DNA from: a virus
Strand: one strand, 5' to 3'
Virus record (IMG/VR): IMGVR_UViG_3300023094_000009
Span: 32,001 to 96,000 of that record
DNA length: 64,000 nt
The notes beneath the pieces were generated by a model. That model was not told the DNA's origin and did no database searches. It saw only the letters and a program-made list of their open reading frames with translations. Shown piece after piece: positions 3,329 through 41,374 of this stretch. Position 1 is the first letter of the stretch. The number at the start of each line of letters is the position of its first letter. The position numbers and the translations under genes are program-made.

Positions 3329-3899
3329 CATGTGGGAGCTAAGAAAGACAGGAGATGAGAATTTCTTGAAAACATCCGCAGAAGTTGGTTGGGTGGAGTT
3401 TAATGAAAGCGGTATGTTTAAAGAAAAACATGATACTCCTAAAATCGCGACGTCTCTCCTCATGTCTCCTTTCAATGTTTATTTCACTTGGCAGACTACT
3501 TTAGTGAAGGAAATTATTTCGGTGAGTGAAGAAAGAATCCATTTCAGGACGGAGAATAGTGAGTATGAATTGAGATTTACAGGTGTATGACAGATAATCA
3601 TGGAAATAAGATAGGTACTATGAAGCCTAATACAAAGTACTTAATGGTGAAAGATATTTATTTTCCATCTGTGGGTGTTGACCTAAAAAAGGGAGAAACG
3701 TATACAACTGATAACGAAGGCCTTCTAACATCCTCTAAGATAAAGGGCATTAACTTCAGTTATATACAGGAAGTCAGTACTACAATTCCGGCAGAAGAAA
3801 CTGAAAAATAAACTTTTCAATAAATTTGCCAAAACGAGAAAGATTGTTTAACTTAGTAGCCCCTATTAAAATTCTTTGGTGGGGGCTTAATTATTTATA

Positions 3900-4142
3900 A
3901 TGGGGCTGATAAAATTTGAAAAAGAAGGATGTGCACCTTGCAAAGCATTAACAGAATGGCTTAAAGAAAACAATATAGAATACGCTTCTTACAACATCAT
4001 GGATAATCTACGTATGGTAAAACAGTATAACTTGAAGTCAGTTCCTGTCTTGATTAGTCTGGACGGAGAATTTGAGAATGGACGAGTGATAGGATTTAGT
4101 GAAAGTAAAATAGAAGAAATTAAAACTTTGGTGGGACTATGA
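3900..4142 (+). CDS. thioredoxin/glutaredoxin-like (NrdH-like) redoxin
   Basis: CAPC active site, cis-Pro motif SVP, adjacent to the RNR genes. Confidence 0.85.
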   Translation: MGLIKFEKEGCAPCKALTEWLKENNIEYASYNIMDNLRMVKQYNLKSVPVLISLDGEFENGRVIGFSESKIEEIKTLVGL

Positions 4143-5113
4143 AAGACATATTTAGAAAAGAGGAATCCTTAGCAGAAGATGATTACCCAGATTTGATTAA
4201 ATATGCACATGCTATACACGAAAGTTTTTGGACTCCTGAGCATTTTAAATATGATAGAGATGTAAGCGATTTCAATATTGTTTTAAATGATAATGAAAAG
4301 CAAGTAATGCAACGGTTGATGCTTGCTATTGCAAACGTGGAAAACAAGGTGAAAACTATGTGGGCGCGTTTAGATATGAGAATCCCAAAAGGAACTATTG
4401 CTGATGTTGCTCATACTTTTGCGGGGAACGAATGTATCCACAAAATGACATATGCAAAACTACTTGATTTACTGGGACTTAGAGAAAGTTTTAAGACTCT
4501 TGGAGAAGTTCCTTGTATGGAAGGTAGGGCAAAATACTTAACAAAATATTTGGAAGGGCTTAGTTCTAGATCAAATAAAGAGTTTACAAAATCTTTGATA
4601 CTCTTTATATCCCTCATAGAAAATTCATCTCTCTTCTCACAATTTGCTTGCATAGCTTCTTTTAGTAGGTACAAGAATATCATGAGTAATTTCAACACTG
4701 TGGTTTCCGCGACGGGACGTGAGGAGCAACTTCATGGGCAATTTGGAGCAGAGCTAATAAAGATTATTCGTACTGAAAATCCTGAGTGGTTTGACGAGGA
4801 AATGGAAGCTAAAATCAGGCGAAATATTAGAAAAGCTTACAAAGCAGAATGCGAAGTACTTGATTGGGTCTTTGAAGGTGGGGAACTAGACTTCCTAAGT
4901 AAAGAGGAATTAGTAGAGTATTTAAAATACAGATTCAATGTAAGTTTGAAGCAGTTAGGTTATGAGGCAGAATATGAAATAAACGAGGAGAAACTTTCAA
5001 AGTTAGAGTTTTTTGAAAGGCAGACAAAATGTTCCATAAGTTTTGACTTTTTTGACAGCAAATCAAGTGAATACTCAGAAACAAATATGATAACAGAAGA
5101 TGACTGGAACTAA
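4139..5113 (+). CDS. nrdB: ribonucleotide reductase beta subunit (class Id-like)
   Basis: ferritin-like ligands E68, E98-x-x-H101, Y105, SLIEN, REEQLH; FWTPE motif. Confidence 0.93.
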   Translation: MKDIFRKEESLAEDDYPDLIKYAHAIHESFWTPEHFKYDRDVSDFNIVLNDNEKQVMQRLMLAIANVENKVKTMWARLDMRIPKGTIADVAHTFAGNECIHKMTYAKLLDLLGLRESFKTLGEVPCMEGRAKYLTKYLEGLSSRSNKEFTKSLILFISLIENSSLFSQFACIASFSRYKNIMSNFNTVVSATGREEQLHGQFGAELIKIIRTENPEWFDEEMEAKIRRNIRKAYKAECEVLDWVFEGGELDFLSKEELVEYLKYRFNVSLKQLGYEAEYEINEEKLSKLEFFERQTKCSISFDFFDSKSSEYSETNMITEDDWN

Positions 5114-5117
5114 AATT

Positions 5118-7756: not shown

Positions 7757-7793
7757 GCTTTGTTTTCAGTGTTTTACGCCGAAATCTTAGTAA

Positions 7794-9139: not shown

Positions 9140-9594
9140 CAGAAATAGTAGAAATTAAAGGAAATATTATAACTGTTAAATGGACACCAAACAAACTCCT
9201 AAAATTATTTGGCTTCAAAGAAAAGACAACCACCTACTTACATAGAGGGGAAACTTATATTTTTGGTGGAGGTTATGTATGGTATGAAAAAGAAACTGGT
9301 AAGATGTACGGTAAGTGTGAATATCTTGATACTGCATTAAGAAAACAAAATTGGAATTAGATGAATAAAAACAGACTAAGAAAAGAAAATGTACACAGGC
9401 TTTACAAGAAAGAAATTGAAAGTTTCTGGAATGCATTGTCTGTTGGAAGGAAAGAAGGAGATAAGCGTGTTATGAGAGTATCTGATAATGGTGTTCTTTG
9501 TATAAAGTTTTTTGTTAATGAGGAGTGGGATTGAATAGGGAAAATTTATAATTTTCTTTTCCAGTTCTTTTTATTGCCGAAATTTAGATAAAGT

Positions 9595-10476
9595 ATGAAA
9601 AAAGAAGAAGTATGTGTGTTTATTGACAGCCTGTCTGAACGTGAAGAAGCTATCAAAATTTTGCAAAAAGCGGGATTAAAAATGGGCGATATGACCCTGA
9701 CCTATGATTATAGTTATCTTAGAACAGATGAGGGGGATGATGTATGGTATATTGCTTGTGAAACTTTAGGTCGTATAAAAATAACTTTGAGTCAATTTGA
9801 AGAAATATTATCAAAGGATCAAGATGAGTACGAAACAGAATTGATGATAAATACTTGTGAGCGTGCAGCAAAAAACAAAAGTGAATACAGAGTCAAAACC
9901 AAAGAAGAGTTTGAAGCTACTTGCGAAAGAACTATTGACGGAAGTGATTCCTATGTATGCGGAGAATCCAAGTTTCATCTTGAAGATATGTCACATTTAT
10001 GTGGCTTAAATTTGACCTTAGAGCAATCTGATCCCCTCTTACAAGCAGGTGAACCTATTAGTCTTAAAGGTATGGGTAACTGGTATTTTACAAAAGAAAT
10101 GATTACACCGATCCTAAATGTTGATTTAGTTGATACCGAAAAATTTCAAAACATAACACCAAGTACAAGTTGTAAGATTAGTAGGTTGGATGAAAGTTGG
10201 GGCAAAAAAGAAACTGAAAACAAGGTAGACTACTCAGAAATAAACCTAGACATTCTAGACCTAATGGCTAAGAGAATGAATGCCAATAAGCATAAATATC
10301 CAGAAGGAAATAGTAAGAGAGAATTGAACGTAAAAGATCTGGAATGGGCTTTATTCAGACATCTAAAGAAAATGATTAAACCTATAGAAGGAGATGTAGA
10401 GAGTTATGAAGATCATTTGAGTGCTATTTTATGTAATGCGTCTATGATATTGGATCAATTGCAGAGGAAGGGTTGA
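9595..10476 (+). CDS. multidomain protein with C-terminal dATP/dGTP diphosphohydrolase-like (DUF5664) domain
   Basis: KVDYS...KYPEGN...ALFRHL...DHLSAILCNA pattern. Confidence 0.65.
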   Translation: MKKEEVCVFIDSLSEREEAIKILQKAGLKMGDMTLTYDYSYLRTDEGDDVWYIACETLGRIKITLSQFEEILSKDQDEYETELMINTCERAAKNKSEYRVKTKEEFEATCERTIDGSDSYVCGESKFHLEDMSHLCGLNLTLEQSDPLLQAGEPISLKGMGNWYFTKEMITPILNVDLVDTEKFQNITPSTSCKISRLDESWGKKETENKVDYSEINLDILDLMAKRMNANKHKYPEGNSKRELNVKDLEWALFRHLKKMIKPIEGDVESYEDHLSAILCNASMILDQLQRKG

Positions 10477-10612
10477 TTATGGGAAATTTAAGTTTCCTTT
10501 TCAGTCTTTACTCCCCGCGAAACCTGAGTACCTCTAAAGTTAAATAGATGTTAACGATCTTTAGAATCAAAATAAAGTAAGTAAATTTGTAAAACAAAAT
10601 AAAAGTAAAATT

Positions 10613-10897: not shown

Positions 10898-12206
10898 TTT
10901 TGTAACTCCTACGGAGCTTTCCTATATTGATTTAATCTCTATGGGAGGCTCCGAAAAGTTAGGAGATGAGTCAAAATTAGGTCAATTTTGTTCTGGATTG
11001 AAGTATGCTATTGCTCTCATTCTAAGAAACAGCATTGAGTTTAAAGCTGTTGTGCGAGGTAATCACTTTATTGGAGGGCATGACCGAGATGTGACTACAA
11101 TTTTTGGAACTTACACTTATCTTGAGGTTGACGAGTTAAGTGGAAAAGAGAAAGAACTTATTGGCTTCACTGTGTCAAGAGATTACGAGTCTTTTAATTC
11201 TTTACATTGTGAGGACATTTTTGAAGCTGCTGGAGATGAAAATTTGCAGACAGGATTTTCAAAAGAATTAGGTTACAACTGGAGTCCGTGGATGATTCTT
11301 AGAGAGCTTTATTCTAACATGCTTGATGAAGGAGGATACTATGTAGAAGGAGTTCCTCCAACAATTGGTAAGTGTGGTACAGTGATTACTTTGTCTTTTG
11401 AAGAAAATTCAATATTTGATACTATCTGGGAAAACAGGCACTTGTACATAAATGAATCGGATGATACACTAGAAGTGTCTTATAGGGTTAAGGCTGTTCT
11501 AAACACAGACAAATACCTTAGAATCTACAAACAAAATATCCTTGTTTATGAAGACAAAGAAATGTTCAGCGAGTACTCATACATTATTAACTTCGGTGAG
11601 ATTGATGAGCGCAGGATTTTAAGTGATTACAGCAGTGTAAGACATGATATCCTTTACGATATTTTGAGTTGTGAAAATGAAGAGTTCATTAAGGGACTAT
11701 TCAGACCAGACTTTGAAGAAGTAAAAGGTGCATTCTTATCTCGTGGTGGTGTTTATGGGACTTGTTCAGATACAATTCACAAATTAGTACAAGAGAATGT
11801 AGAAAAATATGATTCTTTCAATACTTATGAATGGTTGGTTAACAAAGCTAAGGACAGAAAAGACTGTAAACTTCCCGGAAAAAAGATTCAAACAGTAGAA
11901 GATAGTTTGTGGTCATATTCTTCAACTGTAGTTGTTGAAAGTATTCCAGAGGAAGTTAAATTGTCAATCAAAGATAATATCTGTAAAAAGTATGATCTAG
12001 ATCTCTCTGAAATAAGTGTAAAGGAATCCCCTCTAACAGGCGCAAAGGTGGTAGCAGACAAGTTCAACAATTGTTTGATTTTGTCTCCCGAGTTTAAGAT
12101 TGAAGATGATATCGCTGAGTTTATTGTGGAATACTACACTCTAAAGCAGAAAGGAAATATTGTTAAAACTTTAAGCACTGTCTTGGCGCAAAGACTGAAA
12201 AAATAA
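10884..12206 (+). CDS. GHKL (HATPase)-like ATPase with permuted motif order
   Basis: LGQFCSGLKYA (G2-like), LRELYSNMLDEGG (N-box-like), GTVITL. Confidence 0.6.
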   Translation: MKHVSFVTPTELSYIDLISMGGSEKLGDESKLGQFCSGLKYAIALILRNSIEFKAVVRGNHFIGGHDRDVTTIFGTYTYLEVDELSGKEKELIGFTVSRDYESFNSLHCEDIFEAAGDENLQTGFSKELGYNWSPWMILRELYSNMLDEGGYYVEGVPPTIGKCGTVITLSFEENSIFDTIWENRHLYINESDDTLEVSYRVKAVLNTDKYLRIYKQNILVYEDKEMFSEYSYIINFGEIDERRILSDYSSVRHDILYDILSCENEEFIKGLFRPDFEEVKGAFLSRGGVYGTCSDTIHKLVQENVEKYDSFNTYEWLVNKAKDRKDCKLPGKKIQTVEDSLWSYSSTVVVESIPEEVKLSIKDNICKKYDLDLSEISVKESPLTGAKVVADKFNNCLILSPEFKIEDDIAEFIVEYYTLKQKGNIVKTLSTVLAQRLKK

Positions 12207-14242
12207 AAAATTAGAAATTTATCCTAAATGGAAAATAAAATACAGGAAGTTTACAACTATTTCAAAGAGAAGATTATTTCAGGAGATTACATTGTAATAG
12301 AAAAAGAAAAGTTAGCTTGGAGTGTAATAATTGATGGTAAATACAAATTTGATTTGTGGATTGGAGGTAATTGGGATATGTTTTCTGTTGGCGGAATATT
12401 CACAGAAGCATTCATGACAATTGAATTTACAGATGATGAAAAGAAACTTGCTTGGGCTTCACTTGAACCTCTTCTAACAGAATGGGAACATTTACAAGGT
12501 TTGCCAGAAAGAAAGAAGAAATATGAAGAACTCAAAAAAGAATTTGAAGGATGAAAAAAGAAAGTGGATGTCAATTTATTCCTAATGGAGAAGTTGAAAA
12601 AAGATGTTTGAAATGTGGATATGTTATTTGGAGAAGCACTATCAAATCTGATCATGAAGTTGTCAAGGATATGATCGAGTTGGACTATCCTAAACCAGAT
12701 TGTTATAATGAATCAAAGTTGTATTAAGATTATGAAATTACTAAAATTAAACATAGTACCTGTTGCATTTCTTATTTTAGCAGGATTTCTGGCTTATTTC
12801 GATAAGTCAGGTTCAGGTTGGTGTATATTTGGAGCAATTATTACTTATGACTAGACTGACAGATGAGGAAGTAGAGGCACAATTTGAGGAGAAGTTTGGC
12901 AAATGGCCGGGAAAACAAACTGAAAAGGAAAATTTACAAAAAGTAATCTGCAAAATCAACACTCCTCAACACAAGAAAGGAGAGGTTGTAGACCGTTTTG
13001 ACCTAGAAATAGATAGATTGGAGTACCCTGACGTTTATATGCCCACAGATATGCTCTCATTACGTTTCAGAGGATCTAAATCCATGTTCGCTCTATCACA
13101 ATTAATTTGGGAAACAAATAAAGAAAAAGAATCATGAAAGAAAAATTTGCACAAATGACGCTGGAACAGAAATTAGATTTCCTTCCACTTAAAGAGAGTT
13201 TAGAATTATTGAATTCAGGAATAAAACTGAAAACAAGATTTAGCTGGGTTGTAATGACTGAAGAGCTAGGTGATAATCCTGAAAGTATGTCGATAGAGGA
13301 AATTCTTGAGGCACATGCAGAGATGTATGGAGAGGAAGATCAAAATTATTTGAGAGTTGGAAAAGCTTATGACGAGTTCGATGAATTTACTTTAGAGCTT
13401 TGCCCTGCCCCTACGTATACTGACTTAATTAGGTAAGATGAAAGCAAGAAACGATTTTGAAACAGATGATGAATACAATATTTATCTTCGATATTATTAT
13501 GCTGGGCAAAGTTTGAGTGCTATTGCTTTGGTTGATGTAAAAGGAGAGTATTTAAAGAAAGTTCCCACGCAATGTATTCAATACGCTGATGAATTAATTT
13601 CACAACTACAGGATGGCAGATAGAAAACACATCATACACTTACTGGAAAATTCCTTGTTGGACTTTGAGATGTTGTACAAGAAGTATGTTGAAGAGAAAG
13701 GTGCTATTCCTTTTGATGTCTTTACAGAAGTTATGGGCGTATATGCTCAAAGAGTTGGTTTGTTTTCAGTTTATTCTTGTTTCGCGGAAATTAATGTATT
13801 GAGGAATAAAGAGGGAGTGGTAATTAAATATTGTTGATTATGAGAGATGAAATTGACGAGATCATAGAAATGTTTGAAAAATATTAACTGTCATGGAAGG
13901 AATTGAAGACTACGAAGATAAACTCAGAAATGAGGAAGAACAGACTGAAAAATGGTTTGGATTTGTCAACAGAACCATTTACCTCCTGCACAAGCTTGGG
14001 TATGGGATAGGGCGGAAAAAGAATATAATAAAGCGAAAGAAGATGGAAAAAGAAATTGAAAACAGGTTTAAAGAATTACGTCAAGAGCTACTTGAAATAA
14101 GGGAGGAAGTTGGTGGATTAATAAATCAATTACCTGAACAAGACTTTTTTAATAAAGGTATTTATAGGGTGGATCATATTCTTAGCAATTTTGGAATTTC
14201 TATCAGTGCTTGTGAGTTTGATATATTAGATATTCTTGAAAA

Positions 14243-16949: not shown

Positions 16950-17014
16950 TTCGAGTAGACTTATTTTGTTTTCAGTTTTGTTTGCCGAGATTTGGTTAAT
17001 TAAGTGTTAAATGG

Positions 17015-20827: not shown

Positions 20828-21078
20828 CACTTAGAGAAGAATTTGAAGATACAGTTAAAACTGAAAAAGGCGGAATTTCAGTGCTATTTGAAACAAGTAA
20901 TCAGCACTATATTGAATGGTTGGAGAATCAAATAAACAAACTTCGTCAAGATGCTGTCCAAGGTCGTTTTTGTTCAGAAGAAGAGATAGAAACACTCAAG
21001 GAAGAATGCTATCAAGATGGGTTTGAAGATGGCCAAATGAGAGACTACTAATTTCGAGAAACTGAAAACAAAGACTTT

Positions 21079-24068: not shown

Positions 24069-24081
24069 ATTTTATTTAATT

Positions 24082-25281: not shown

Positions 25282-25319
25282 AAGGTTTGTTTCAGTTCTT
25301 TTTCCGGCGAATCCTACCT

Positions 25320-25366: not shown

Positions 25367-25416
25367 TGGAGAAGATTGGTTTCAGTCTTTTTATTGCCGA
25401 AATTAAAATGTAAACT

Positions 25417-26112: not shown

Positions 26113-27823
26113 GTTGTTTTTCAGTTTTATTCGCGCGAAAATTTAAATTAAATAAAAATTATGATTACAGTAGTAGCAAATGCAGAACAATTAAGAAAAG
26201 CATTAAAACAAATTGAAAGAGCCGAATCAAACGGATTTAACTATTGCTTAGCAGTATTCGACTTAGTGGAATGTGGCAGTAGTGTATCTGATTGCAAAAT
26301 TGAGTTTGATGGTATACTTGAAAAAGCACATCCAACAGATGGAAACCTTAATTGGGGTAGAGGACAAAGAGTAACAGAACGAAACAGATTTGTAGATGGT
26401 AAATTGATACCAATAGAAGAGTAAATTATGGCATATATAGAAGTAGATTTATCTCTAATTGACGATTACGACTTAGAGGGAGAAATTGTAAAAAGATTAA
26501 GTAGGGGAGATAATGGCAATATTCAAGAAGTCACCCTAACTGATGATCTGAATTTTATGTCAGAAATTGTAGCTACGGATATTGACCAGCTTAGTGAACA
26601 TCATAAAAGAAATCTACTTTATGCCTTAACTGGCGGTGAAATGGAAACCAATATGTATGACAATCTAAAAAGAGAGCATATAGAAAGTGTTTTTGATAAG
26701 TATTCTTTGGATGAATTGTATAGACTAATACCTTGAAATTTTATTTTCTTTTTCAGTTCTTTTTCCGGAATTGTGCTATATTTACGAAAAAATTTAAGTT
26801 ATGAAAAATAAAATCTACATTGTAGTCGCTTACAGGTGGGGAGAAAGAAGTAATCACTCTTACACTGTTGGAGCATTTGAAACAAAAGAGGAAGCCATTG
26901 TTTGTGCAGATGGTCATAGAGACTATCGAGGTGGTAAGTATAGCTGTGAAGTCGAGGAAATTATTATTGGCGGATACGATGAAGACATGGATAATTATGC
27001 AGAAAGTGTTTATCACGCTAATGGAATGTGCGAGATATGAACGACTCCCTCATTTCCCTTAGCTACGCTTTAGCATCCACTAAGATGATAACCTACCCCG
27101 ACAAAGTGGCAATACTCGATATTCCATTTCCAGAGTTATTAGAAGAACTTAAAAATTACAATCCTATGAACAGAAAGAACGAAATAAAGAGAGCTCTTTA
27201 CAGAGAAAAGCCTATGGCAAAATATTACCCAATCTGGAAATCGCTGGGAAAGGACTATGATTATGTAGATTATAGGAGTGAATTAGCCGATGGAACTCAA
27301 GTTCATTTCAGAGTTCCTAAAGAGGAACACAGTGATTTATTTACGGGTACTATGCCAGCCCTTCTTCTTATCAAGTGGATGGTTGATTTTTTCAAAATAA
27401 CGGTGAGATGATATGGAATGGATATTAATAATTTGCGTCATTGTCTCTGGTATTGGGGTAATGATGAACAGTGATTTTAATTATGATGAAGAGGATAGGA
27501 ATTAGTAGTTGAAATAACGAGGTATGAAAAAAGAACAGATGCTCAAAGAAGCTTATGGCGAATTTTGGGAAAAATTGGAGGAAGGTGTCAATGGATATGG
27601 ATGGTGTATTTTAAAGGATTCCCATCCCATTTTCAATACTGTACCTATGCAGAGAATGAATAAGTACTACGCTAGACCTGCCTCCCTGAAAGGTATTGAA
27701 CTTATAAAGTTTATTTACTAATCCTACGGAAGCTCATTTGCTTATTCGGTGGATGGTTGATTAATTTTTTTATTTTCAGTTTTTATTCCGGCGAAATTTA
27801 AAAATTACATTATCTTTGTACCT

Positions 27824-29404: not shown

Positions 29405-29876
29405 AAGTACCAATATACTTAAAAACATTATTTTCACCCTTCAAGCCCTTAAAGCTCAAATTCTACTTCGGTAAGGTTGCTTTGGGATGTCCTTATTTTC
29501 TACCAAGACGCTTCGTGAAGTCTAAAGACAAACCCGGCTACAAAGTCCCCATTGCCAAGAAAGTAGGGTTTGATTTTGTTAAGCTTGGCTGGAAAACTAA
29601 GTGGAGTGGTAGGGATTATAGGTTCGAATGGTCTCCTAAGTGGTCATTTGTTTTCTTTGGATTTCAGTTTTGTATTTCTTTTATTGCGCCGGAACAGGAT
29701 CACTATTGGGAATGCTGGCTTTATTATGACAATAATACTGACAAAAGTAAATCTAAAAGGGAAAGAATTAAACAATGCAGAGAAGAGCATCCTTGTAGTT
29801 GGACAAGCTATTCAAAAGCTGGAGAGAAAGAAGAAATTGATTATTACGAATTTATCTTAAAGAATAAATATCTAAA

Positions 29877-29922: not shown

Positions 29923-31473
29923 CAGAAAAGTTAGAAAGCATGGAACACAAAGTAATGATTCACGGTTCACATCACTACACAATTAAAGTTAAAGGAAATA
30001 AGAAAACCTTATACTTTTCTTGCGAGGATTTTTGGGCAGAGGCGTCACAAGGCAAGAAGATAGCTTCAATAAAGAATACGGGGAATGGTATCAAGATAAA
30101 AAGATTCAATAAATTCTTGGGATATGGTGATGCTCTGGAATTGAACATCCTTCTTACTTGTGAATTAGGAACTAAATTTGAAATACTATGACAATCCAAG
30201 AATTTTGTGAAGAAAAAAGAGGAACTTACGATAAGTTCTACACCATGTATGAAGTGTGCAAGAGTTTAAGTTTTGTAGATTTGAATGTTGACCCCATCCA
30301 AGCTATCAGAGAGGTTTGTAAACTTTTTATGGAGCATCCTTTATATGGAGAAGGTGTTATTGATGTTTCAGTTTCTTATGGCGATCCCTTTGAAGGAGAT
30401 TGCAGGTTGGATGAGGAGTCATTGAATTTCTTTGTTTATGATTTAGAAGAGTTTGTTGATCCTCTTTCTGGCGAAATTGTGAAACCAAGCATGAATAAAC
30501 TGGATGTTAGATTCATCATCAAAAAGTTTGCGGAAGACTCAGAAGAAAATATTTTAGCACAGGAATTAGACAAATGTAGAAGTCTTTCTTACTTTTACAA
30601 TAACTATGTCAAACTTGATGTTCAAGCAGACGTTTCAGATGAAGATATTCAGAATCTAATCAAAAATACACTTAAATTAAGAGGAAGATTATGACTAAAT
30701 TAGAGTTCTACAGGAAAACATATAGAGCCTATTGGTTATCTCAATTTTTACCTTCAAAGTGGTTAAATCCTCACAGAGGATTTTGTCATTTTTGGCGAAG
30801 CAGGAGTATGGGAGAATCTTTTAAAGTGACAGACCTATACTTATTAGCTGTAGCTCATCCTGAATTTTCAAATATGGGGTATTGGTTTGAGCGTGGGAAA
30901 ATAAAACCAAGATTACAAGTTTTAAAAACAGCAATTAAAAATTTAGAAAAATGACAGAAGAAGAAAAATTAAATGAAAGACTAGAATGGTTAGAGGGTAA
31001 CTATGATATGTCTGAAGACGAGAGAAGATCTGTATTACGTGCAATGGTTGAATTTGCTAATTTTCATGTAGGAGAAGCTTTGCAGGAGGCTAGTGAAAAA
31101 GCCACCATGAAACTTGAATATCCTGATGAGGCATATCAGGAGTCAAATGAAACTGGATTGAAGTTTGCCTGTGCTGATGATATTAGTAGAGGAGGAGAGT
31201 ATGGATCTGTAGAAATAGAAGAAGATTCAATTTTAAACGCTTATCCACTATCTAAGATCAAATAATTATGAAAATTAAAGAAACTGAATACTACAACCTC
31301 ATAGAGGGAGAAGACGAAAATGGTGAATGGGCTATCCAGTTGAATAAAGCCAAAAGGGTTTGTCAATTAACATTGGAATCTGATGGTAATGATACTTATG
31401 TGAACCTTGACAAGAAAGAACTTCTCTTAGTTAGAGATTTGATTGATATACAACTTTTAAATATGTAATTTTT

Positions 31474-33072
31474 ATGAAAAATTTATTATTAATTTTCTTT
31501 GTTTTCAGTTTGTTTTGCGCGAATTGTCAGCCATATGTTCACACTACGGGATCTGTAACAACATGTTCCGGTTTATTTTATGATAACGGTAACACTGGTA
31601 ATTACCTAAATAACAGTAATGTAACTCAAACCTTTGTGCCACCTTCCTCTTGCTCTGCACTAAGTGTGACGTTTTCAGCATTTAATGTAGAGGCGGGTTA
31701 TGATTTTCTATATGTATATAATGGAAATTCCACAAGTGCTCCTTTGATAGGGACTTATACTGGAACTACCCTCCCTTCAACCATAGTTTCTTCCTCAACT
31801 GATGGTTCTTTAACTTTTAGGTTCACATCAGATAATACCCAACGTAGAGCTGGGTGGGTGGCTTCTTTCTCCTGTATCACAAAACTAACCTTAAATGCAG
31901 GAGTTGATAAAACAGTAAGTTGTCACGGTAATACTACTATGTCAGCAACTGCAACAACTTTAGGTTTCACTGGTTCCACAACTTACCAACAAAATCTAAT
32001 GCCTGTCGGAAGTTATGTAACAGATGCTTCAAATACAGAAGTTGGAGTTACTTTAAGTGGAGCACCTGTAGGAGCAACTATCACAAGTGTTACTTTTACT
32101 CCTCAATCATATGTTACTCCTTGTACTTTTCCTTGCGGATTTACTTTGTGTTACCAGTATAACTCTTGGGTGAGAATGGAATATTGGAACGGATCTTCGT
32201 GGATAGTCATAACTACATGCAATTCCCCTGTAACTATTAGTAATTTTAATGGTAATGCTGTAAACGGTCAAAACATTAAAATAAGGACTATTAATATTGA
32301 TGCTTTTTCAGACTATGTCTACACTGATTTATCTAATGTTACTGCAACCTATCAATACAACCCCACTATTACTTATTCTTGGTCACCCAATACTGTAAAC
32401 GGATACACCACTCTTTCTAGTGTTACAATACTTAACCCAACTGTCACTCCTGCTAATACAACACTCTACACTTTAACTGCAACATCAAATGGATGTTCTG
32501 CGTCTGATGCTGTCCTCATCACTATGCCTTGTGCATTACCTGTTGAACTTACTAATTTTTCAGCTCATTGTCAAAGTGGGATTTCTTTTATTAAGTGGGA
32601 AACAGCTTCTGAGAGTAATTCTGATTATTTTTTAGTGGAAAATTCAAGGGATGGGGAAAGTTGGACAGTGGTTAATTCTGTGGGGGGGGCTGGTAATTCA
32701 AATAGTCCTAATTCTTATGAAACTGTTGATTATTCTTTTCGCGGAGAAACAAGTTACTACAGACTTAGGCAAGTTGACTTTGATGGAAATTTTGAAGTGT
32801 TTGAGCCTGTAAGTGTTTCTTGTGAGGAAGAGGAAGACAGAATCTCAATTCATCCAAATCCTAACACTGGAAAATTCTTTTTGGAAATATACTCAGAGAA
32901 AGATAAGGGAATGCAAGATGTAAACTTAATAGACAATACTGGACGACTAGTTAAGACTAGGAAGATTGACATTAATAATGGAACGACAGTGGTTAATTTT
33001 ACCATTGATTTACCAAGCGGAGTTTACTTACTTTCTGTTTCAGGAATGAATCAAAAATTTATAATTGAATGA
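31474..33072 (+). CDS. secreted CUB-domain protein with T9SS type A C-terminal sorting domain
   Basis: signal peptide; CUB (CSGLFYD.G...YDFLYVYNG...LTFRFTSD...GWVA); LPVELTNF module; HPNP...GRLV...LPSGVYLL...KFIIE. Confidence 0.9.
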   Translation: MKNLLLIFFVFSLFCANCQPYVHTTGSVTTCSGLFYDNGNTGNYLNNSNVTQTFVPPSSCSALSVTFSAFNVEAGYDFLYVYNGNSTSAPLIGTYTGTTLPSTIVSSSTDGSLTFRFTSDNTQRRAGWVASFSCITKLTLNAGVDKTVSCHGNTTMSATATTLGFTGSTTYQQNLMPVGSYVTDASNTEVGVTLSGAPVGATITSVTFTPQSYVTPCTFPCGFTLCYQYNSWVRMEYWNGSSWIVITTCNSPVTISNFNGNAVNGQNIKIRTINIDAFSDYVYTDLSNVTATYQYNPTITYSWSPNTVNGYTTLSSVTILNPTVTPANTTLYTLTATSNGCSASDAVLITMPCALPVELTNFSAHCQSGISFIKWETASESNSDYFLVENSRDGESWTVVNSVGGAGNSNSPNSYETVDYSFRGETSYYRLRQVDFDGNFEVFEPVSVSCEEEEDRISIHPNPNTGKFFLEIYSEKDKGMQDVNLIDNTGRLVKTRKIDINNGTTVVNFTIDLPSGVYLLSVSGMNQKFIIE

Positions 33073-34303: not shown

Positions 34304-35218
34304 ATGAGCTTAGAGTCTATCAAGTTCCAATATTTTTCTGCGAATGTGTATGATACTTCTGTTTTGGGAAAAGTTTCTTTGTCTGACTTCATTAGAGCCA
34401 ATAAAAATCCTAAGCCTCGAGTAAAGGAAATCTTCAAGCAAATTGAGGAAGCGACTCTGGCGGGGGATTTAAAACTGAAAGGTAAACTAAAAACAGAAAA
34501 TCTTGTTTACTTTTGTCCTGCTTGTATGTTCCAATCGAGAAGGAGAAATGATGACATTATTTCAATAAATCCTATACTAGTTTTGGATTTTGACGGCTTA
34601 GACAATGCAGAGGAATTTAAGCAGTTCTTATTTGACTCTTGTTCTTTTATTATTTGTTGCTATTTATCACCCTCAAAATCAGGAGTTAAGGCATTGGTCT
34701 TGTTAGAAGATGGTATTGAAACTATAGAGGAGTGGAAAAGTTATTACTATGGATTAGCTTACTATATGTGTAAATACAAAGGCTTTGATTCCTCCTCCTC
34801 CTCAATATCGTTGCCTCTTTTCCTCTCCTATGATGAAAATCTCCTATATAGAGAAAATCCTACAACATGGACTCAAAAAGGAAAGAAAATAAATGAATTT
34901 GATTATAAGAGTGATGTTGAATTAACTTTTGAGGGAGAGAGAACTGAATATGAAAAGAACATTGTAAAAAAGAAAATTCGTACAATGATCGAGACTATTG
35001 AGGACAACGCGCACCCAACCGTCAGAAGCGTTTCCATACTCTGCGGAGGATACTGTGCATTTGGATACTTGACAGAGCAAGAAGCTAAAGAATTAATTTA
35101 TCAATTGATTGATGAAAATTCTTATACTTGTCAGAAGGCTAACAACTATAAAAAAACTGTTGATAAATTTCTAGTAGATGGTATGAAGCGACCTCTAGAA
35201 TTAGAACTAAACAATTGA
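34304..35218 (+). CDS. BT4734/BF3469-like (VirE N-terminal) primase-like protein
   Basis: LK..L.YF.P...VLDFDGL...YLSPSKSGVKALV...FLSYD. Confidence 0.75.
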   Translation: MSLESIKFQYFSANVYDTSVLGKVSLSDFIRANKNPKPRVKEIFKQIEEATLAGDLKLKGKLKTENLVYFCPACMFQSRRRNDDIISINPILVLDFDGLDNAEEFKQFLFDSCSFIICCYLSPSKSGVKALVLLEDGIETIEEWKSYYYGLAYYMCKYKGFDSSSSSISLPLFLSYDENLLYRENPTTWTQKGKKINEFDYKSDVELTFEGERTEYEKNIVKKKIRTMIETIEDNAHPTVRSVSILCGGYCAFGYLTEQEAKELIYQLIDENSYTCQKANNYKKTVDKFLVDGMKRPLELELNN

Positions 35219-35528: not shown

Positions 35529-36137
35529 ATGAAAAAAGAAGAAATATATGTCATAATTGACAGTGAGGAAAAGAAAAATAGGGCTGTTGAAATCCTCGAA
35601 AATGCAGGGGAGAAAATTTGGGATTCAGCAGATGCTTTAAGGTTTGATGATAATGATTGGTTTATAACGCATAGAGTAGAAGGTGAAGAAATTACCCTCG
35701 ATCAATTGGAAGAGTTGTTGATGCCTAAACTAGAATCAGAATACCCTCAAGAAATGCTTGTCTGGGACGAAATCGAAGAGCTTAAAATTCAAAAGACTGT
35801 TTTAGGCTTATTCAATGATCAATATGTAGTGTTTGATCCTTCTACAGATGGAGCTACTTATCTCACTTACTTGAATGCTTCTCCTATTGTTGAAGAACAG
35901 ATTCCCTTGATGACTTATACTTGTGGTAGGGGCGATATTAGTATTGGAGTTGGTGAGGATTATATTTCTTTTTCAGTTCTTTCTTCGCCCCGAAAAGTTG
36001 GTGAAGATATTACAGGAATGTATTTACCAGAGAGCGATTTAACAAAAGTGTATTTTGAAAATGTAGAATCTCTAGAAGTTTTGCAAGAGAAAGTTGATAC
36101 ATTGAGAAGATGGTTGCTCAGAAACAAAAAACAATAA
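35529..36137 (+). CDS. hypothetical protein sharing its N-terminal domain with 9595..10476
   Basis: MKKEEIYVIIDS...AVEILENAG...ITLDQLEELL. Confidence 0.7.
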   Translation: MKKEEIYVIIDSEEKKNRAVEILENAGEKIWDSADALRFDDNDWFITHRVEGEEITLDQLEELLMPKLESEYPQEMLVWDEIEELKIQKTVLGLFNDQYVVFDPSTDGATYLTYLNASPIVEEQIPLMTYTCGRGDISIGVGEDYISFSVLSSPRKVGEDITGMYLPESDLTKVYFENVESLEVLQEKVDTLRRWLLRNKKQ

Positions 36138-37348
36138 TTATGGAAAAATTAATTACATTTTTAACAGTAATTTCTTGGATTTCGGGGATTATTTCGACTA
36201 TCTGGTTCTTTAGTATTTTGATTAAAGTATCAAAGTATGAGGATTCTTTTCGAGGAATGGTTGATAGACGTTTAGGCGTTGACAGGACTTCTGAAGCTTA
36301 CACGTATGCGAGAAAGTGTTTTGTAGTTGCAATAGTATGTTGGACTTTTATCATTGTGTTTTAGTTATGAAAAGTTTAGAGGAAATAAAAAGAATTGTGA
36401 TGAAGTGGTCAGGGTTTGAACTTGAAGGAGAAACAGAGGCAGACTTAATCCGTAGTGTTGGTGACATATCCTACCAGTTACAATGTGAAATTTCTGATCA
36501 AGAAAAAGGTATTAGAAAATTAATTCAAGAATTAGATATAGAAGAAGGCGTATGAGAAAAGAGGATTTTTACGCACCAGACTGGCAGGAAAAACAAAAGA
36601 AATACAAACTGATTATTCCCTGCAAGCTTTGTCAGATTGAAGAGTTTAAACCTATTAAAGTTAAAAGAAAATGAGAATCAAAATTACAAAATTAAAAGAA
36701 TTGCCAGATGCACTTAATCCTAACAACATTGAAGAAGGATGGAGCAAAGAGTTTGAAATTCCTACAGAATATTGGAGAGAGCCTTGTGTGGGAGAAAGAT
36801 TCTATGCCTCTCTTTCATGGTCTACTAGCGGAATTCAGGAGATTATTGATGATAAGACATTTAGAACTTATAGCTCTATTTACAGATGGGAGATCTTAGA
36901 AAATGTTTACTCCTTTTATGCACATTCAAAAGATGGAATTTTATGAGAAAAGGGTTTATTGCATTCATTTTTATTTGGATTTTTGTTTGGCTACTATCCT
37001 ATCCTACAAGTTATGTTGGGAGTTTAGGTGTTTATATATTTGGTAACTATTGTTTGTATTTATTCGTTCTTTTTTCAGTTTTGTTTGCCGGAATTTTGAT
37101 TGATCACCTAACGCCAAAGAAATGAAGAAATGTTTCAGGTGTAAGCTACAAAAATCTCTTTCAGCATTCGATGTAGACAGAAGGAAATACCAACTACCAT
37201 CGGATCTTGGCACTTGTAAGGTTTGTATCAAATGTAACTTAGAAAGAGCATTAAAGGACTTGTCTACCATTAAATTTAACTTTGAAGATAATAAATTTGA
37301 AGTGAAAAAGTTTGAAAATAAAGAAGAAGCAATCAAATATTTTGACAA

Positions 37349-37720: not shown

Positions 37721-37724
37721 TGGT

Positions 37725-38258: not shown

Positions 38259-39907
38259 AGAGATTAACATCAGAAGATCTATTCTCACTCCAATATGGAG
38301 ACAGAGTTTACCACAGAAAAAGTTCCTCCTACTGTGATGCTTTTAGATATGTAGGACGTATGCCTTCCTCAGAGAGATATTTAATATTCTCAGAAGGTGA
38401 AAAGCTAAAACACCTATATATTAATCAGGATGGTACTTTTAGAGGAGAGTGGTATTCGGGTGATTACGATGATAAATTTATTATTCAAGTAAGAATAGTA
38501 GAACTGGAAAAAGAGTTAGAGACTTTAAGAAAAGAACTCCATGTTTGAAGACGAAGAAATAATTGAAGGTGATGATAGCTTGTCTCTAAGAGAATACATC
38601 AACAGTTTTAGGTTTGCCTTTGAAGGAGAGAAGAAGTTTATTCAAGAGAATGATTGGTCTACTTTGTCTTCTGTGAGTGATAGAAAGAGTTTGTATGATT
38701 TGCAGGAACAGTTTGTTTCTACTATTCTTTCACGCGCCGAAGAGATAATCAAGAAATCCAAAGGTGCTCTGTCTCCTACAACAGAAGAGTTGGTTAAAAC
38801 TTTAGCTGGATTGGGTGATATTCATAAAGACAGGATTCAAGGCTTTATCAAGGACAAGGATTGGGCATCAAAGTTTGACATAAACAACATCAAGGACTTT
38901 GCTTCAGAAGGAGAGTTTATTGCCAAGTTGAATACCTCTTTGGAGCAGATAAAAAAGAAACTGTCTAAGATTAAAATAAAGGAATATGAGTTTGATATTC
39001 CTCTAAGAAAAGGACAATATGTTGCGCTTCCAATGATGGAACGATTTGTCGCACAATTTCCTGAGATAGAGGAAAAACTTAAATTGAAACCCGTTGAGGA
39101 AGTTAAGGCTGAGAAGAAAGTACCCATAAAACGTAAAACTACTAAAAAGAAAACAGATGTTAAAAATACTTAGGATAGGAAAAGGTAAAAATATGAGTGT
39201 TCCAAAAGCAGCTCTTGTATTCTACTTCTCAGAGTATGAAGGATCTGTACTTACATATGGACATATGGATGAGATGCACCGAATTATTGATATTGCAGGT
39301 GCTAAACATCAAAGCATGCTTTCCCCTACTCAAGTTATTAGTTCTCTTAGAAATTCTCCCTATTGGGATTGTAATCTGATTAGGGGCTTTTACCCTGGAC
39401 TTGCAGGACATGGAGGGGCGTGTGTCTGTAAACCTTCCAAGAAAGGAGAACAATTATATAAGTTAAAACTGATTAAAGATGAAGAAATACAGAATTAAGC
39501 AAGTAGGTAATAAATTTTATCCCCCAAGAAAATTTCTTTTTCTTTTGGGAAAATCTAACAGATAAAGATGGGATAGATGTTATCAGATTTGACTTAGAAG
39601 ATGCAAAGTATTTCATAGAAAAATATATAGAAGACTCAAAAACAATATTCCACAAATATCCATGAAATACATAACAGACACAATCCGTGAGAATGCTACT
39701 AAATTTTTTCCAAAAGGAACTGTTTTCAACAATGATGAGCTGTGCCATATGGATTTAGACCCTTGTAAAGGGATAGATAAAACAATAGTTGATCCCTATA
39801 TTATGGTTAAAGGGGAAACACTTGTTGCGCTAGGTAGGATAGAAAATGATCTTACTTATTACTGTACTATTTATGACCTTAAAAGGGGTTGGGCTAAAAT
39901 CGTTTAG

Positions 39908-41374
39908 ATGAAATACGAATTATTTAATTTTCAAAAGAAAGCCCTTGCATTGTGTGAGGGCTTTTTGTTTGATTCACCTCTGAAAAGTGGATTGTGTATA
40001 ATACCTACCGCTGGGGGTAAATCCGTCATCAATGCTAAACTTTGCGCTTCGCTTAGAGGTGTTCCTACTTTGGTGGTTGTTCCTTCTGAGGAATTACTTA
40101 GACAGAATTATGATGCTATGGTTAAGGAAGGGTTGGAAGTTTCTATCTATTCTGCTTCCATGAACTCAAAGGTTATTTCTTCTCTTACTATTGCTACAAT
40201 AGGATCTTTGAAGGATAAAGGGAAAGAGTTTAAAGACTTTGGTGTTAAGTTTGTTTTTATAGATGAGGCTCATTTTAAGTTTTCTTCTTTCAGTTTTTTG
40301 AGGAGCTCCCCTCTTTCCGGCGATTCTGGTGAAGTGCGAGATGCAATATTCAAAGGATTCATGAAGGATTTGAAACCCAAGAAACTTTTAGGCTTTACAG
40401 CTACGCCTTTCATATTGTCAACTGTTGGTGGAATGGCTTCGCTTAAATCTCTCATAAATGTCAGAGGAGGATTCTTTAAGGATATCATACACCTTACACA
40501 AATTCAGGAAGTGATCAAGGAAGGACGTTGGGGTGAGATTAAATACGATCTCCACCCCGTCAAAGATTACCAACTGAAAGTAAATACTTCGGGAGCTGAA
40601 TACTCCAAAGAATCGATAGATCTGTTCTTGAAAGAGAATGAGGTGAATAACCGTGTCTGTCTTCTATTAAAGCAACACCAAGCGACAAAGACACTCACAT
40701 TTGTAGAATCTGTTGATGTTGCTAACAAGATTAAAGAATGGTACAATTCTAAGCTGTTTAAGGGACGATGCGAAGTTGTTTCAGGTGATACTCCCAAAAA
40801 AGAGAGAAAAGCCATTATTGAGGCTTACAAGGACATAAATAGCGATTTATTACACTTAATCAATTACGGTACTTTGACAACAGGTTTTGACTTTCCTCAG
40901 CTTAGTGTTGTAATTGGTGCAAGACCTACAATGTCTTTGGCTTTATATTATCAGATGCTTGGTAGGCTTACCAGAGTACATAAGGATAAAGAGTTTGGAT
41001 TATATATTGATTTGGTGGGTAATTGTTCTAAGTTTGGTTTTATTGAAGACTTGAATTTTGATAGTGTAGGAAAGTTTGTTTTCAGTTGTTTTTCCGGCGA
41101 AAAGTTGCTCACAGATATTCCTCTTACCTTTCCTTATCCTGTGACAAAATCAACAATCAGAAATCCTCCTAAAAGAAAGGCTGTTGCAAATAGGGATATG
41201 AAAATATGGTTTGGCAAGTTTGATGGACAATTAGTAACAAGACTTCCAAAGTGGTACAGAGAATATCTTTTACAGGGAGATTCTTCGGATTTTCCTCTAA
41301 ACGAAAAAAGAGAAGCCCTTATGGAACTCCTCTCTTCACTGAAATATAATGAGTATACTTCTATTCTTACTTAG
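39908..41374 (+). CDS. SF2 DEAH helicase (RadD/UvsW-like)
   Basis: PTAGGKS, DEAH, FTATP, LTTGFD, QMLGRLTR. Confidence 0.93.
   Translation: MKYELFNFQKKALALCEGFLFDSPLKSGLCIIPTAGGKSVINAKLCASLRGVPTLVVVPSEELLRQNYDAMVKEGLEVSIYSASMNSKVISSLTIATIGSLKDKGKEFKDFGVKFVFIDEAHFKFSSFSFLRSSPLSGDSGEVRDAIFKGFMKDLKPKKLLGFTATPFILSTVGGMASLKSLINVRGGFFKDIIHLTQIQEVIKEGRWGEIKYDLHPVKDYQLKVNTSGAEYSKESIDLFLKENEVNNRVCLLLKQHQATKTLTFVESVDVANKIKEWYNSKLFKGRCEVVSGDTPKKERKAIIEAYKDINSDLLHLINYGTLTTGFDFPQLSVVIGARPTMSLALYYQMLGRLTRVHKDKEFGLYIDLVGNCSKFGFIEDLNFDSVGKFVFSCFSGEKLLTDIPLTFPYPVTKSTIRNPPKRKAVANRDMKIWFGKFDGQLVTRLPKWYREYLLQGDSSDFPLNEKREALMELLSSLKYNEYTSILT

Follow-up and report, generated by a model that had tools for sequence, protein, structure and literature searches.

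The DNA uptake sequences of the Pasteurellaceae and Neisseriaceae have a short specific core with phased A/T-rich tracts after it; they recur about once per kb throughout these bacterial genomes and are upheld by biased uptake in natural transformation, a maintenance process of which we know no phage equivalent. Phage P1, with its asymmetric, dispersed C1 operators, and phiC31, with its conserved inverted repeats, each have one regulator that governs many scattered units through repeated sites of about 17 bp. In Cluster A mycobacteriophages, the stoperators and operators read by L5 gp71 and the TipsytheTRex repressor are two-part asymmetric sites bound by a monomer with two DNA-binding domains; their orientation follows the direction of transcription, and reversal abolishes function (PMC9283540). 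The promoter-early stem-loop (PeSL) cassettes of the T4-type phages RB49 and phi1 combine a host-consensus promoter with a stable stem-loop terminator (Arbiol et al. 2010, PMC2839356).

The repeat described here is a T-rich word of about 27 bases with a short G+C cluster at its end, present in about 50 copies and in both orientations in an uncultured 141-kb Bacteroidota phage (G000), of which the Cellulophaga phages phi4:1 and phi17:2 are distant kin. The window analysed is the 64,000-nt stretch comprising bases 32001-96000 of the virus record. With DNA uptake sequences the motif shares its two orientations and its presence within genes as well as gaps, but it occupies one arm only, whereas they are genome-wide. 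The parallel with P1 and phiC31 lies in repeated sites and, putatively here, in one regulator for many scattered units; unlike the motif, those sites belong to temperate phages, number some 10-20, stand mostly at promoters and are of fixed length. Like stoperators, the motif is an asymmetric site recurring tens of times over the genome, often in short intergenic gaps, and it varies between related phages. The first-pass annotation had offered stoperators as an analogy, which breaks down on orientation, to which stoperators are bound (PMC9283540) and towards which the motif is unbiased, and on site length and spacer, a fixed 13-mer being set against an element of about 27 nt whose spacer spans 4-15 nt and whose G+C cluster is degenerate. 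Stoperators also lie in both arms, whereas the motif is confined to the early arm; and a mismatch of lifestyle is probable, since they serve a lysogenic repressor and no integrase or repressor was found in this genome. PeSL cassettes resemble the motif in numbering about 50 per genome, in being concentrated in hyperplastic regions of small ORFans, and in filling stop-to-start gaps, sometimes flanking plastic replication genes such as that for DNA polymerase (PMC2839356). However, they point the same way as the genes (PMC2839356) and carry a promoter and stem-loop, while the motif runs in both orientations with neither host-type promoter box nor stem-loop (z = -0.08); and recombination between PeSL copies has no demonstrated counterpart here. 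The motif matched no Rfam family, and no published description of it was found in Rfam or the literature searched, in keeping with the earlier view that it is not a recognised element.

Anatomy and abundance of the motif

The full motif comprises box A (TTTTCAGT), a T-rich spacer, a CpG-rich cluster (box B) and AAA. Box A, of consensus yTGTTTTCAGT, is asymmetric, lineage-specific and the most conserved part. The spacer has a modal length of 7 nt; box B is a cluster of 4-7 nt, not fixed in sequence between copies, whose last base is G, and together with the preceding T run it reads nearly identically on both strands. Because spacer and cluster vary, the exact identity common to copies amounts to only about 15 nt. 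No hairpin is present on either strand of the motif, its mean folding energy being -3.86 against -3.80 in shuffles (z = -0.08).

Genome-wide there are 51 full copies, where 40 order-3 Markov simulations gave 1.2 +/- 1.1 (maximum 4). In the window TTTTCAGT occurs 27 times against 8.0 +/- 3.0 (maximum 16) in 100 dinucleotide shuffles, and the box-B pattern by itself is mildly enriched (9 against 3.6 expected); the most over-represented 8-mer of the whole genome is TTTCAGTT, with 79 occurrences for 15.8 expected. The comparison named beforehand as able to refute selection on the DNA was a codon-preserving shuffle: 20 copies lie wholly within ORFs, about ninefold more than the 2.3 (maximum 6) found in 60 such shuffles, and TTTCAGT cores within ORFs number 71 against 38.2 +/- 4.9. 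The repeat is genuine and is selected at the DNA level, as first proposed: it comes in either orientation, lacks a fold, and its frequency in ORFs exceeds what codon usage explains.

All 15 forward and all 8 reverse copies of the first-pass list were recovered, at or within about 25 nt of the positions given there, reverse copies having been denoted by their left ends; the list had overlooked three, at 193-211 (-), 10199-10219 (-) and 30366-30383 (+). Its statement that CpG clusters are otherwise scarce holds for the dinucleotide, whose observed/expected ratio is about 0.5 in either arm, but not for G+C runs containing CpG, of which there are 627 genome-wide, just 45 of them in motif copies.

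Table 1. Copies of the motif, in window coordinates
Copy	Strand	Context
193..211	-	Overlaps end of preceding gene
3788..3806	-	Supplies last codons of ORF 3587-3811
7763..7784	+	TAnnTTTG box 68 nt downstream, two TTAACA boxes between
9557..9582	+	Degenerate, box A with one extra C; precedes dGTP diphosphohydrolase gene
10199..10219	-	In ORF 9595-10476, near residue 208, just ahead of Pfam domain
10499..10519	+	Intergenic; TTAACA/TAAATTTG promoter downstream
12185..12200	-	Short spacer; last codons of ORF 10884-12206
12905..12925	-	Within small ORF
13764..13787	+	12-nt spacer; within small ORF
16970..16987	+	In gap 16950-17059, between DUF4494 gene (next after dnaB) and following gene
18064..18085	-	Overlaps stop codon of ORF 17649-18083
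20537..20557	-	Fills 30-nt gap; stop codon 3 nt before, ATG 6 nt beyond
21052..21068	-	Weak; box A intact, reduced G+C cluster
25290..25309	+	TACCTTTG 69 nt downstream, two TAACA boxes between
25380..25399	+	Inside a 5' leader, as it lies 13 nt past the TACCTTTG -7 box; 17 nt before ATG
26119..26137	+	Within 48-nt gap
26751..26768	+	Within 64-nt gap
27774..27793	+	TATCTTTG and pyrimidine-dimer glycosylase gene downstream
29662..29692	+	17-nt spacer; in ORF 29377-29880; may be chance or weak, as the encoded peptide is kept in relatives
30366..30383	+	Weak; within ORF
31503..31521	+	Signal-peptide codons of T9SS cargo gene
34459..34480	-	Spacer contains A; within primase-like gene
35971..35992	+	Within ORF 35529-36137
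37073..37091	+	In + strand ORF 36886-37125 of mechanical list; placement uncertain (scored non-coding, the greedy gene set having kept an overlapping minus-strand ORF)
41080..41099	+	In helicase gene, 290 nt from convergent junction of the two arms
61603..61619	-	Isolated, in small + strand island of late arm, between convergent genes

Distribution and placement

The early, or replication, arm holds 45 copies and the late arm 6 (p = 7e-7), an uneven distribution as the first reading had it; for non-coding copies the figures are 27 in 10,480 nt and 1 in 3,677 nt (p = 0.004). The giant-gene stretch at 42-55 kb is indeed almost empty, its sole box A (at 52113) being without a G+C cluster. Early-arm copies show no orientation bias, with 25 forward and 20 reverse (p = 0.55), and like orientations are grouped, in 15 runs where 23 were expected (z = -2.5), with at least eight switches of orientation. 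Density is about one copy per kb, and the regularity of one per 1-3 kb claimed earlier gives way to random-like spacing (CV 0.95).

Intergenic, pre-promoter, gene-end and intra-ORF copies, all reported at first, are all represented in the copy table. Twenty-seven of the 45 early-arm copies lie between genes, and most copies fill short gaps from stop codon to ATG. The distance from stop codon to copy is 1-4 nt for reverse and 4-23 nt for forward copies, and that from copy to ATG 6-15 nt and 16-35 nt respectively. At composite promoters the order is motif, about 10 nt, two TTAACA boxes, about 25 nt, and TAnnTTTG. Five sites in G000 have the start of the motif 57-69 nt ahead of a host-type -7 box; TTAACA-type boxes intervene at each of them (just one at the reverse copy), and the relative L225 shows this arrangement too. 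In the gap 16950-17059, a canonical hairpin terminator and a promoter lie downstream of the motif copy.

The recognisable promoters of both arms are all of host type. No phage RNA polymerase, T7-like or other, and no sigma factor or sigma region 2 was found, so that temporal control must act on the host enzyme; this absence is weak evidence, because the PF00940 control gave no match. A DYDND (DxDxD) motif in a 1885-aa protein, considered as a polymerase candidate, was rejected since it is not conserved in phi4:1.

The motif in related phages

Judged by sequence comparison, a variant of the element is common to related phages at family level, which goes beyond the first reading. The variant reads yCTGTTTT-T/C-A-R-T, T run, CpG cluster, AAA. 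Its enrichment is 5-10 fold in L229, L227, L228 and G001 and weak in L225, five phages in all; of three others, L230 and phi4:1 show no enrichment and L231 no clear one (3 against 0.8 expected). In G001 there are 26 early-arm copies against 3 in the late arm, again in both orientations. The family can be traced down to about 40% polymerase identity, and copy number varies widely between close relatives. A BT4734-like primase is encoded by all five element-positive phages, and a Prim-Pol type by two of the three non-enriched ones.

The DNA polymerases of G000 and L225 are 81% identical. Two orthologous junctions were compared for orientation, one ahead of the dGTPase gene and the other in the first long gap after dnaB. 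At each, both phages retain a motif copy in like orientation amid diverged flanks; the L225 copy at the second is forward and directly follows dnaB. One L225 site has a spacer of about 29 nt. Between the polymerase and primase genes, G000 has about 10.4 kb of DNA and about 8 forward copies, whereas in L225 this interval measures about 0.75 kb and has none. In four phages every copy that lies just ahead of the polymerase gene is reverse, and in L228 reverse copies abut the ATG ahead of three consecutive genes. Orientation may therefore matter, given the like-oriented runs and the uniformly reverse copies before the polymerase gene.

The copy in the helicase gene can be compared with its L225 ortholog. 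Eight consecutive bases differ, changing Thr-Asn-Ala to Val-Phe-Ser, and the codons that follow carry three more changes, two synonymous, with which the consensus motif is complete; the gene around it is unchanged in length and its flanks are about 90% identical. The alignment indicates that this copy arose in place through block substitution, which suggests selection or templated copying.

Putative docking sites and other readings

The reading we prefer, with a probability of roughly 40%, is that the copies are putative docking sites for one protein that acts upon the passage of host RNA polymerase through the early arm. A single sequence-specific protein, probably phage-encoded and equipped with two recognition modules or two partners, would dock on double-stranded DNA at each copy and read both boxes. 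The sites would mark the early/replication arm, where binding would block or insulate host RNA polymerase, leading to early shut-off, and would also protect the arm from antisense transcription running in from the convergent late arm; at composite promoters the motif may serve instead as an upstream element. Differences in box A among related phages would reflect co-evolution with the reader protein. An array of sites for one protein stays the best reading, as at first, but its binding protein was not identified: precomputed Pfam hits to called genes, covering most of the early arm, include no helix-turn-helix or other DNA-binding domain, and PHROGs gave nothing useful on candidate proteins. 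Between the options first offered for such an array, namely silencing, loading of an ejected protein and recombination hot spots, the evidence favours none.

Some features sit awkwardly with docking. A spacer of 4-15 nt, reaching about 29 nt at the L225 site, is unusual for one rigid protein; the G+C cluster lacks a fixed sequence; and a non-polar site predicts neither the orientation runs nor the all-reverse group upstream of the polymerase gene.

It is unlikely, although several features fit, that the motif is an unconventional promoter or start site, served either by an unrecognised phage polymerase or by host RNA polymerase that a phage factor has modified. On this view the enzyme would recognise box A, melt the DNA at the T run and start at the G+C cluster with its G-AAA end; such a layout resembles that of single-subunit polymerase promoters, which have a specific box, an easily melted run and a G+C-rich start. 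Forward copies would switch on downstream genes and reverse copies make antisense RNA upstream, as one temporal switch. The distance from cluster to next ATG, 16-35 nt for forward and 22-46 nt for reverse copies, is typical of leaders; many forward copies precede genes without a host-type promoter; box A varies among relatives, as promoter/polymerase pairs do; and one-orientation runs could mark gene blocks sharing a temporal fate. Yet without orientation bias in a one-strand arm, 20 of the 45 copies would fire antisense, the spacer ranges from 4 to 15 nt, and two copies stand in leaders, just downstream of host promoters; the unconserved DYDND and, weakly, the missing polymerase or sigma gene also weigh against it.

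Less probable again is a repeat spread by recombination, a short homology linker at gene boundaries that shuffles small accessory genes as PeSL cassettes do, and/or is copied by gene conversion between ectopic sites, its part in regulation being small or nil. Copy density peaks where small ORFans pile up, as in the polymerase-primase interval of G000 compared with L225, and their number differs widely among close relatives; the eight contiguous bases in the helicase gene resemble a conversion patch, one-orientation runs fit local duplication of gene-plus-motif units, and the genome has several homing-endonuclease-like genes and one for a RecA-like protein. However, some 15 nt of exact identity offers little homology, no insertion or deletion bounded by copies was demonstrated, and the fixed composite arrangement with promoters is left unexplained; retention of motif and orientation at orthologous junctions, in a family reaching down to about 40% polymerase identity, argues for function.

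We regard as improbable a strand-specific signal for DNA processing, either a site-specific nick, as in T5-like or phiKMV-like genomes, or a preferred priming or loading site for the BT4734-like primase and a DnaB-like helicase. An asymmetric site in both orientations and in runs would suit a choice of strand by orientation; density is near one per kb, and the primase accompanies the element in all five phages while two of the three non-enriched ones have Prim-Pol. But that correlation comes from essentially one clade, and L231 has the primase without clear enrichment; no nickase was identified; the late arm must replicate too, yet is almost without copies; and the orientation switches, eight or more, are too many for origin-and-terminus logic.

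Least probable of all is an RNA-level leader element of internal cistrons, whether an unstructured A/U-rich tract acting as standby site or enhancer in Shine-Dalgarno-independent initiation, or the target of a phage RNA-binding protein or nuclease through the near-symmetric U-run, G+C and A-run part, which would be in the mRNA whichever way a copy points: copies of both orientations do lie just upstream of start codons, abutting the ATG of three consecutive genes in L228, and box B is near-identical on both strands, but about 20 copies are inside ORFs far from starts, several precede promoters, where they would escape transcription or end up at the 3' end of a transcript, the motif's level of structure is not below that of shuffles, and box A, its most conserved part, gives unrelated RNA in the two orientations.

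Genome organisation and anatomy of the motif

The window occupies bases 32001-96000 of the 141,284-base IMG/VR record. An identical ENA contig of 141,294 bases begins at another point, and the genome (G000) is therefore circular or circularly permuted. Its genes fall into two arms of opposite strand. The 78-kb early, or replication, arm encodes ribonucleotide reductase, a DnaB-like helicase, DNA polymerase A, a BT4734-like primase and a superfamily-2 helicase, together with GroEL, a RecA-like protein and about 150 small ORFs, while terminase, the portal-region genes and the genes for giant virion proteins belong to the late arm. Among named phages the closest are the Cellulophaga phages phi4:1 and phi17:2 (Lightbulbvirus, 145 kb), which have the structural arm in common with it at 22-39% identity. 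At least seven homing-endonuclease-like genes (GIY-YIG/SegE-like, HNH with NUMOD4, NUMOD3, and DUF723 with zinc fingers) lie among the replication genes, one of them directly before and another directly after the DNA polymerase gene. The sequence GGCC is present at 10 sites in 141 kb, compared with 65-82 for each of CCGG, GCGC and CGCG across the whole genome, a scarcity that suggests avoidance of a HaeIII-type restriction site.

Coordinates of the two arms, of loci bearing the motif and of neighbouring features
Feature	Coordinate system	Position	Strand of genes
Early arm	IMG/VR record	~136.5 kb through record start to 73.4 kb	+
Late arm	IMG/VR record	73.4-136.3 kb	-
Homing-endonuclease-like genes	window	6802-7695, 21326-21958, 24082-25281, 28676-29404	
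Homing-endonuclease-like genes	genome	674-1006, 8902-9528, 26996-28252	
dGTP diphosphohydrolase ORF	window	9595-10476	
Palindrome TTCGCGCGAA, one of its sites	window	16027-16039	
Gap with motif copy, terminator and promoter	window	16950-17059	
Interval from DNA polymerase to BT4734-like primase	window	23908-34303	
TAnnTTTG boxes 4-7 nt before ATG	window	17048, 27811, 30173, 34026, 37713	
TAnnTTTG boxes close to ATG, further sites	genome	1563, 10255, 25877, 139404	
Helicase gene	window	39908-41374	
Hairpin and T run within helicase ORF	window	39936-39966	
Motif copy within helicase gene	window	41079-41102	
Gaps filled by other repeats	L225	451-3102, 13882-14424	
TnpB/Cas12f-like gene	L225	16694-17812	

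The most over-represented 8-mer of the genome is TTTCAGTT (79 occurrences against 15.8 expected), and TTTTCAGT has 27 occurrences in the window where shuffles give 8.0 +/- 3.0. Full copies were required to have TTTCAGT, then a spacer in which pyrimidines make up at least 80%, then a G+C cluster; by this definition there are 51 in the genome, against 1.2 +/- 1.1 in order-3 Markov simulations. The logo consists of a T-rich lead-in, often with TTTG, an invariant TTTCAGT (box A), seven mostly-T positions, four to seven CpG-rich S positions that usually end in G (box B), and finally A-A-a. Since the spacer varies from 4 to 15 nt and the G+C cluster is itself variable in sequence, this is a two-part element without fixed length. 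All the copies listed in the first-pass annotation are present in the window, and the comparison with codon-preserving shuffles that it had proposed beforehand gave 20 copies inside ORFs against 2.3 (maximum 6), an excess beyond codon usage. Its remark that CpG clusters are scarce holds for the dinucleotide, which is depleted in both arms, but not for CpG-containing G+C runs, which are common (n = 627), with only 45 falling within motif copies.

The copies are concentrated in the early arm, as had been anticipated, with 45 there and 6 in the late arm (p = 7e-7); after normalisation to non-coding sequence the split is still 27 to 1 (p = 0.004). The proposed rate of one copy per 1-3 kb gives way to a random-like spacing (mean 1.6 kb, median 1.0 kb, CV 0.95), and regular spacing is rejected by this CV and by large genes that have no copy. 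Placed on Prodigal-type gene calls of the identical ENA contig, the 45 early-arm copies divide into 27 between genes, about 5 that run across a stop codon and about 12 located further inside ORFs. A reverse copy leads with its G+C cluster, 1-4 nt past the stop codon, and leaves 6-15 nt to the next ATG, filling a gap of 30-39 nt; a forward copy leaves 4-23 nt after the stop codon and 16-35 nt ahead of the ATG. Whichever way a copy points, therefore, its G+C cluster comes to lie about 16-46 nt before the start codon. Although all genes of the early arm are on one strand, its copies are divided between 25 forward and 20 reverse (p = 0.55), with a tendency for neighbours to share an orientation (15 runs against 23 expected, z = -2.5). 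The motif is a signal read as DNA, and is tied to the early arm and to gene boundaries.

Forward copies run through the ORFan-rich interval between the polymerase and primase genes, which is about 14-fold longer in G000 than in L225, an uncultured relative with an 81%-identical polymerase: about 10.4 kb with some 25 small genes, against about 0.75 kb with one gene. In three further relatives (L228, L229 and L227) the same interval measures 3.6-6.4 kb, and on this comparison it is a hyperplastic region. The ORF for dGTP diphosphohydrolase is also longer in G000 than in L225 (293 against 184 aa); its Pfam domain begins at about residue 203, with a reverse motif copy close to the same point (about residue 208), so that the ORF may be two genes fused across a former intergenic copy.

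Promoter context and the copy in the helicase gene

In five places a motif copy begins 57-69 nt ahead of TAnnTTTG, the host-type -7 promoter box. Boxes of the TTAACA type lie between the two, a pair of them wherever the copy is forward (four places) and a single one where it is reverse, and the same composite arrangement is found in L225. Two motif copies are located inside leaders, just 3' of a TAnnTTTG box. In one gap of the early arm a motif copy is followed by a canonical hairpin terminator and then by a promoter, and because the terminator is separate the motif cannot be the terminator. The motif is associated with one promoter class, and the phage seems to use only host RNA polymerase. 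Sigma region 2 gave no match in a six-frame search and no phage RNA polymerase was found by PHROGs on large proteins; the lack of a PF00940 match for a T7-like polymerase in six frames is a weak negative, since the positive control was also unmatched. A 1885-aa protein considered as a virion RNA polymerase was rejected because its DYDND, the one DxDxD candidate, is not conserved in phi4:1 gp038, and a sequence search against PDB for such an enzyme returned nothing relevant. Many TAnnTTTG boxes lie only 4-7 nt before an ATG, which implies leaderless mRNAs for a sizeable share of early-arm genes.

The helicase gene carries a consensus motif copy. An alignment with the ortholog in L225, 76% identical in amino acids, shows a block of eight successive base differences by which Thr-Asn-Ala has become Val-Phe-Ser and box A has arisen; three more changes in the following codons, of which two are synonymous, give a sharper G+C cluster. 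Length is unchanged, and the flanks are about 90% identical; the more distant relative L230 has no motif at this position. As the bases are replaced in frame, the copy in this single case arose in place, not by insertion. Its origin would lie either in selection on clustered changes or in templated conversion of a patch, for which a box-B-like stretch already present would have been the seed. The case shows that protein sequence can be overridden by a non-coding signal and, if conversion was responsible, also how such arrays grow. The copy is situated 290 nt from the convergence of the two arms, where the terminal genes overlap by 4 nt and so leave no room for a terminator. This junction, marked in G000 by overlapping stop codons, is occupied in L225 by a TnpB/Cas12f-like gene, which has the helicase gene on one side and the first giant late gene on the other. 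Within the first 60 nt of the helicase ORF there is also a 14-bp hairpin followed by a T run, whose codons are kept in L225, and which could be an attenuator or a chance structure.

Occurrence in related phages

A graded series of uncultured relatives was found through DNA polymerase homologues. Six of them were compared over about 22 kb around the polymerase gene, and G001, a 132-kb IMG/VR record, was compared whole. A generic form of box B, in which a T run is followed by an S run with CpG and then by AA, is enriched in the whole genomes of G000 (59 against 12.6) and G001 (83 against 15.8), in the 22-kb regions of L229 (9 against 0.8), L227 (13 against 0.8) and L228 (15 against 1.3), and weakly in L225 (4 against 0.9). 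It is not enriched in L230, L231 or phi4:1, although the count in L231 (3 against 0.8) is too small to call absent, and k-mer analysis of phi4:1 revealed no dispersed word. The upstream half is lineage-specific: G000 and L225 have TTTTCAGT, the others TTTTTAAT, TTTTTTAG or words like these, and CTG or TTG usually comes before it. The G001 element is likewise confined to the early arm (26 copies against 3), in both orientations (11 and 15). As a family the motif is conserved, with drift in its specific half.

Individual positions are partly shared. G000 and L225 share two copies, one ahead of the dGTP diphosphohydrolase gene and one in the first long gap 3' of dnaB, each with its orientation retained, and the non-coding sequence around these shared copies has diverged. 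Reverse copies also stand just before the polymerase gene in the two phages, at different junctions, and all copies so placed in G000, L225, L227 and L228 are reverse. Intergenic gaps in L225, the closest relative, are filled instead by other repeats, namely CTGCTAACG-containing words and GGCG/CGCC-type hairpins, so that intergenic repeat families evidently turn over quickly in this phage group. Further afield, an exact 21-mer scan of viral contigs gave no match and a looser pattern gave single chance matches only; no close relatives of a 721-aa protein were found in viral contigs, and Rfam had no match within the window.

Comparison with known systems and possible function

The motif resembles the stoperators of Cluster A mycobacteriophages in consisting of many asymmetric sites in short intergenic gaps, and a two-domain reader, a feature of stoperators, is proposed likewise for its predicted reader. 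Stoperators, however, have a fixed length, a strict orientation dependence and a lysogenic context (PMC9283540). Here orientation does not follow transcription, and the fixed 13-bp site is replaced by two parts with a variable spacer and G+C cluster. As to a counterpart of the immunity repressor that reads stoperators in temperate phages, a six-frame search of G000 gave no tyrosine integrase, and the Pfam hits of its early arm include no helix-turn-helix domain. PeSLs of T4-type phages combine a host promoter with a stem-loop, co-oriented with the genes (PMC2839356); they are similar in copy number and in their preference for ORFan-rich plastic regions, but the motif has neither a TAnnTTTG box nor a stable stem-loop. 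On either strand, the mean folding energy of the motif plus flanks equals that of shuffles (z = -0.08), an upstream hairpin accompanies a minority of copies only, and identities as hairpin, cruciform or intrinsic terminator (a G+C-rich hairpin plus T run) are rejected for want of a fold. REP/MITE-type repeats differ in their palindromic hairpins or terminal inverted repeats, and the one helicase copy involved no insertion or deletion. Unlike T7-like or crAss-like polymerase promoters the motif is not co-oriented with genes, and its 15 orientation runs in the early arm contrast with the one strand switch of Chi/KOPS-type polar sequences. The motif is thus a new variant among dispersed phage regulatory words, and a member of neither stoperators nor PeSLs.

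The most economical reading, to which a probability of about 40% is given, is that the copies form an array of predicted docking sites for one putative protein, probably phage-encoded, acting on RNA polymerase traffic. Such a reader would have two modules, or a partner, and would serve as a roadblock or insulator; at the composite promoters it may act as an upstream element. Against this stand the failure to find a reader, the loose spacer and hints that orientation matters. Among the genes common to G000 and G001 and absent from phi4:1 are those for GroEL, the BT4734-like primase and a DenV-like glycosylase, as well as small ORFs without known function; no recognisable DNA-binding regulator is among them. 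A more elaborate reading is doubtful: a virulent Bacteroidota phage without its own polymerase would steer host RNA polymerase over the 78-kb early arm by means of some 50 asymmetric sites, whose orientation would determine whether each works as a sense/antisense promoter or as a polar roadblock to transcription, sense or antisense, and new sites would be written into essential genes, such as that for the helicase, by templated patch conversion where intergenic space is absent.

It is similarly doubtful that the motif is an unconventional promoter firing sense and antisense transcripts. A host-type promoter inside the motif is rejected, there being no TA-nn-TTTG register and no usable -33 spacing, and sigma-70-type matches are not enriched there. 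Somewhat less likely is a recombination- or conversion-driven linker of the PeSL kind. A strand-specific nick or priming signal is improbable; neighbouring copies do tend to agree in orientation, and primase sites as a general requirement are rejected by a late arm nearly empty of copies. Least probable of all is an RNA leader element. Long-range RNA stems between neighbouring forward and reverse copies are unlikely because, by inspection, their spacers and G+C clusters differ.

The timing of gene expression in large virulent Bacteroidota phages is almost unknown, and literature searches brought up no account of this motif, or of how genes are regulated in these phages, a lineage that appears wholly dependent on host RNA polymerase. 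No sequence signal in the genome is stronger than the motif. Restricted to the early arm, and conserved as a family in uncultured phages related to those of Cellulophaga, it therefore offers a concrete handle for a regulator search or for mapping transcript ends. Even an ordinary operator array would be among the few defined regulatory elements of Bacteroidota phages.

Other dispersed words were also encountered. The perfect 10-base palindrome TTCGCGCGAA occurs at five sites in the genome, against about 0.1 expected, lies partly inside motif copies and is also the top k-mer of G001. A second over-represented word, TAAGTCCC, occurs with its complement 13 times in G000 (1.7 expected) and TAAGTCC 19 times in G001 (against 6.2), several copies of these words being located in long non-coding stretches.
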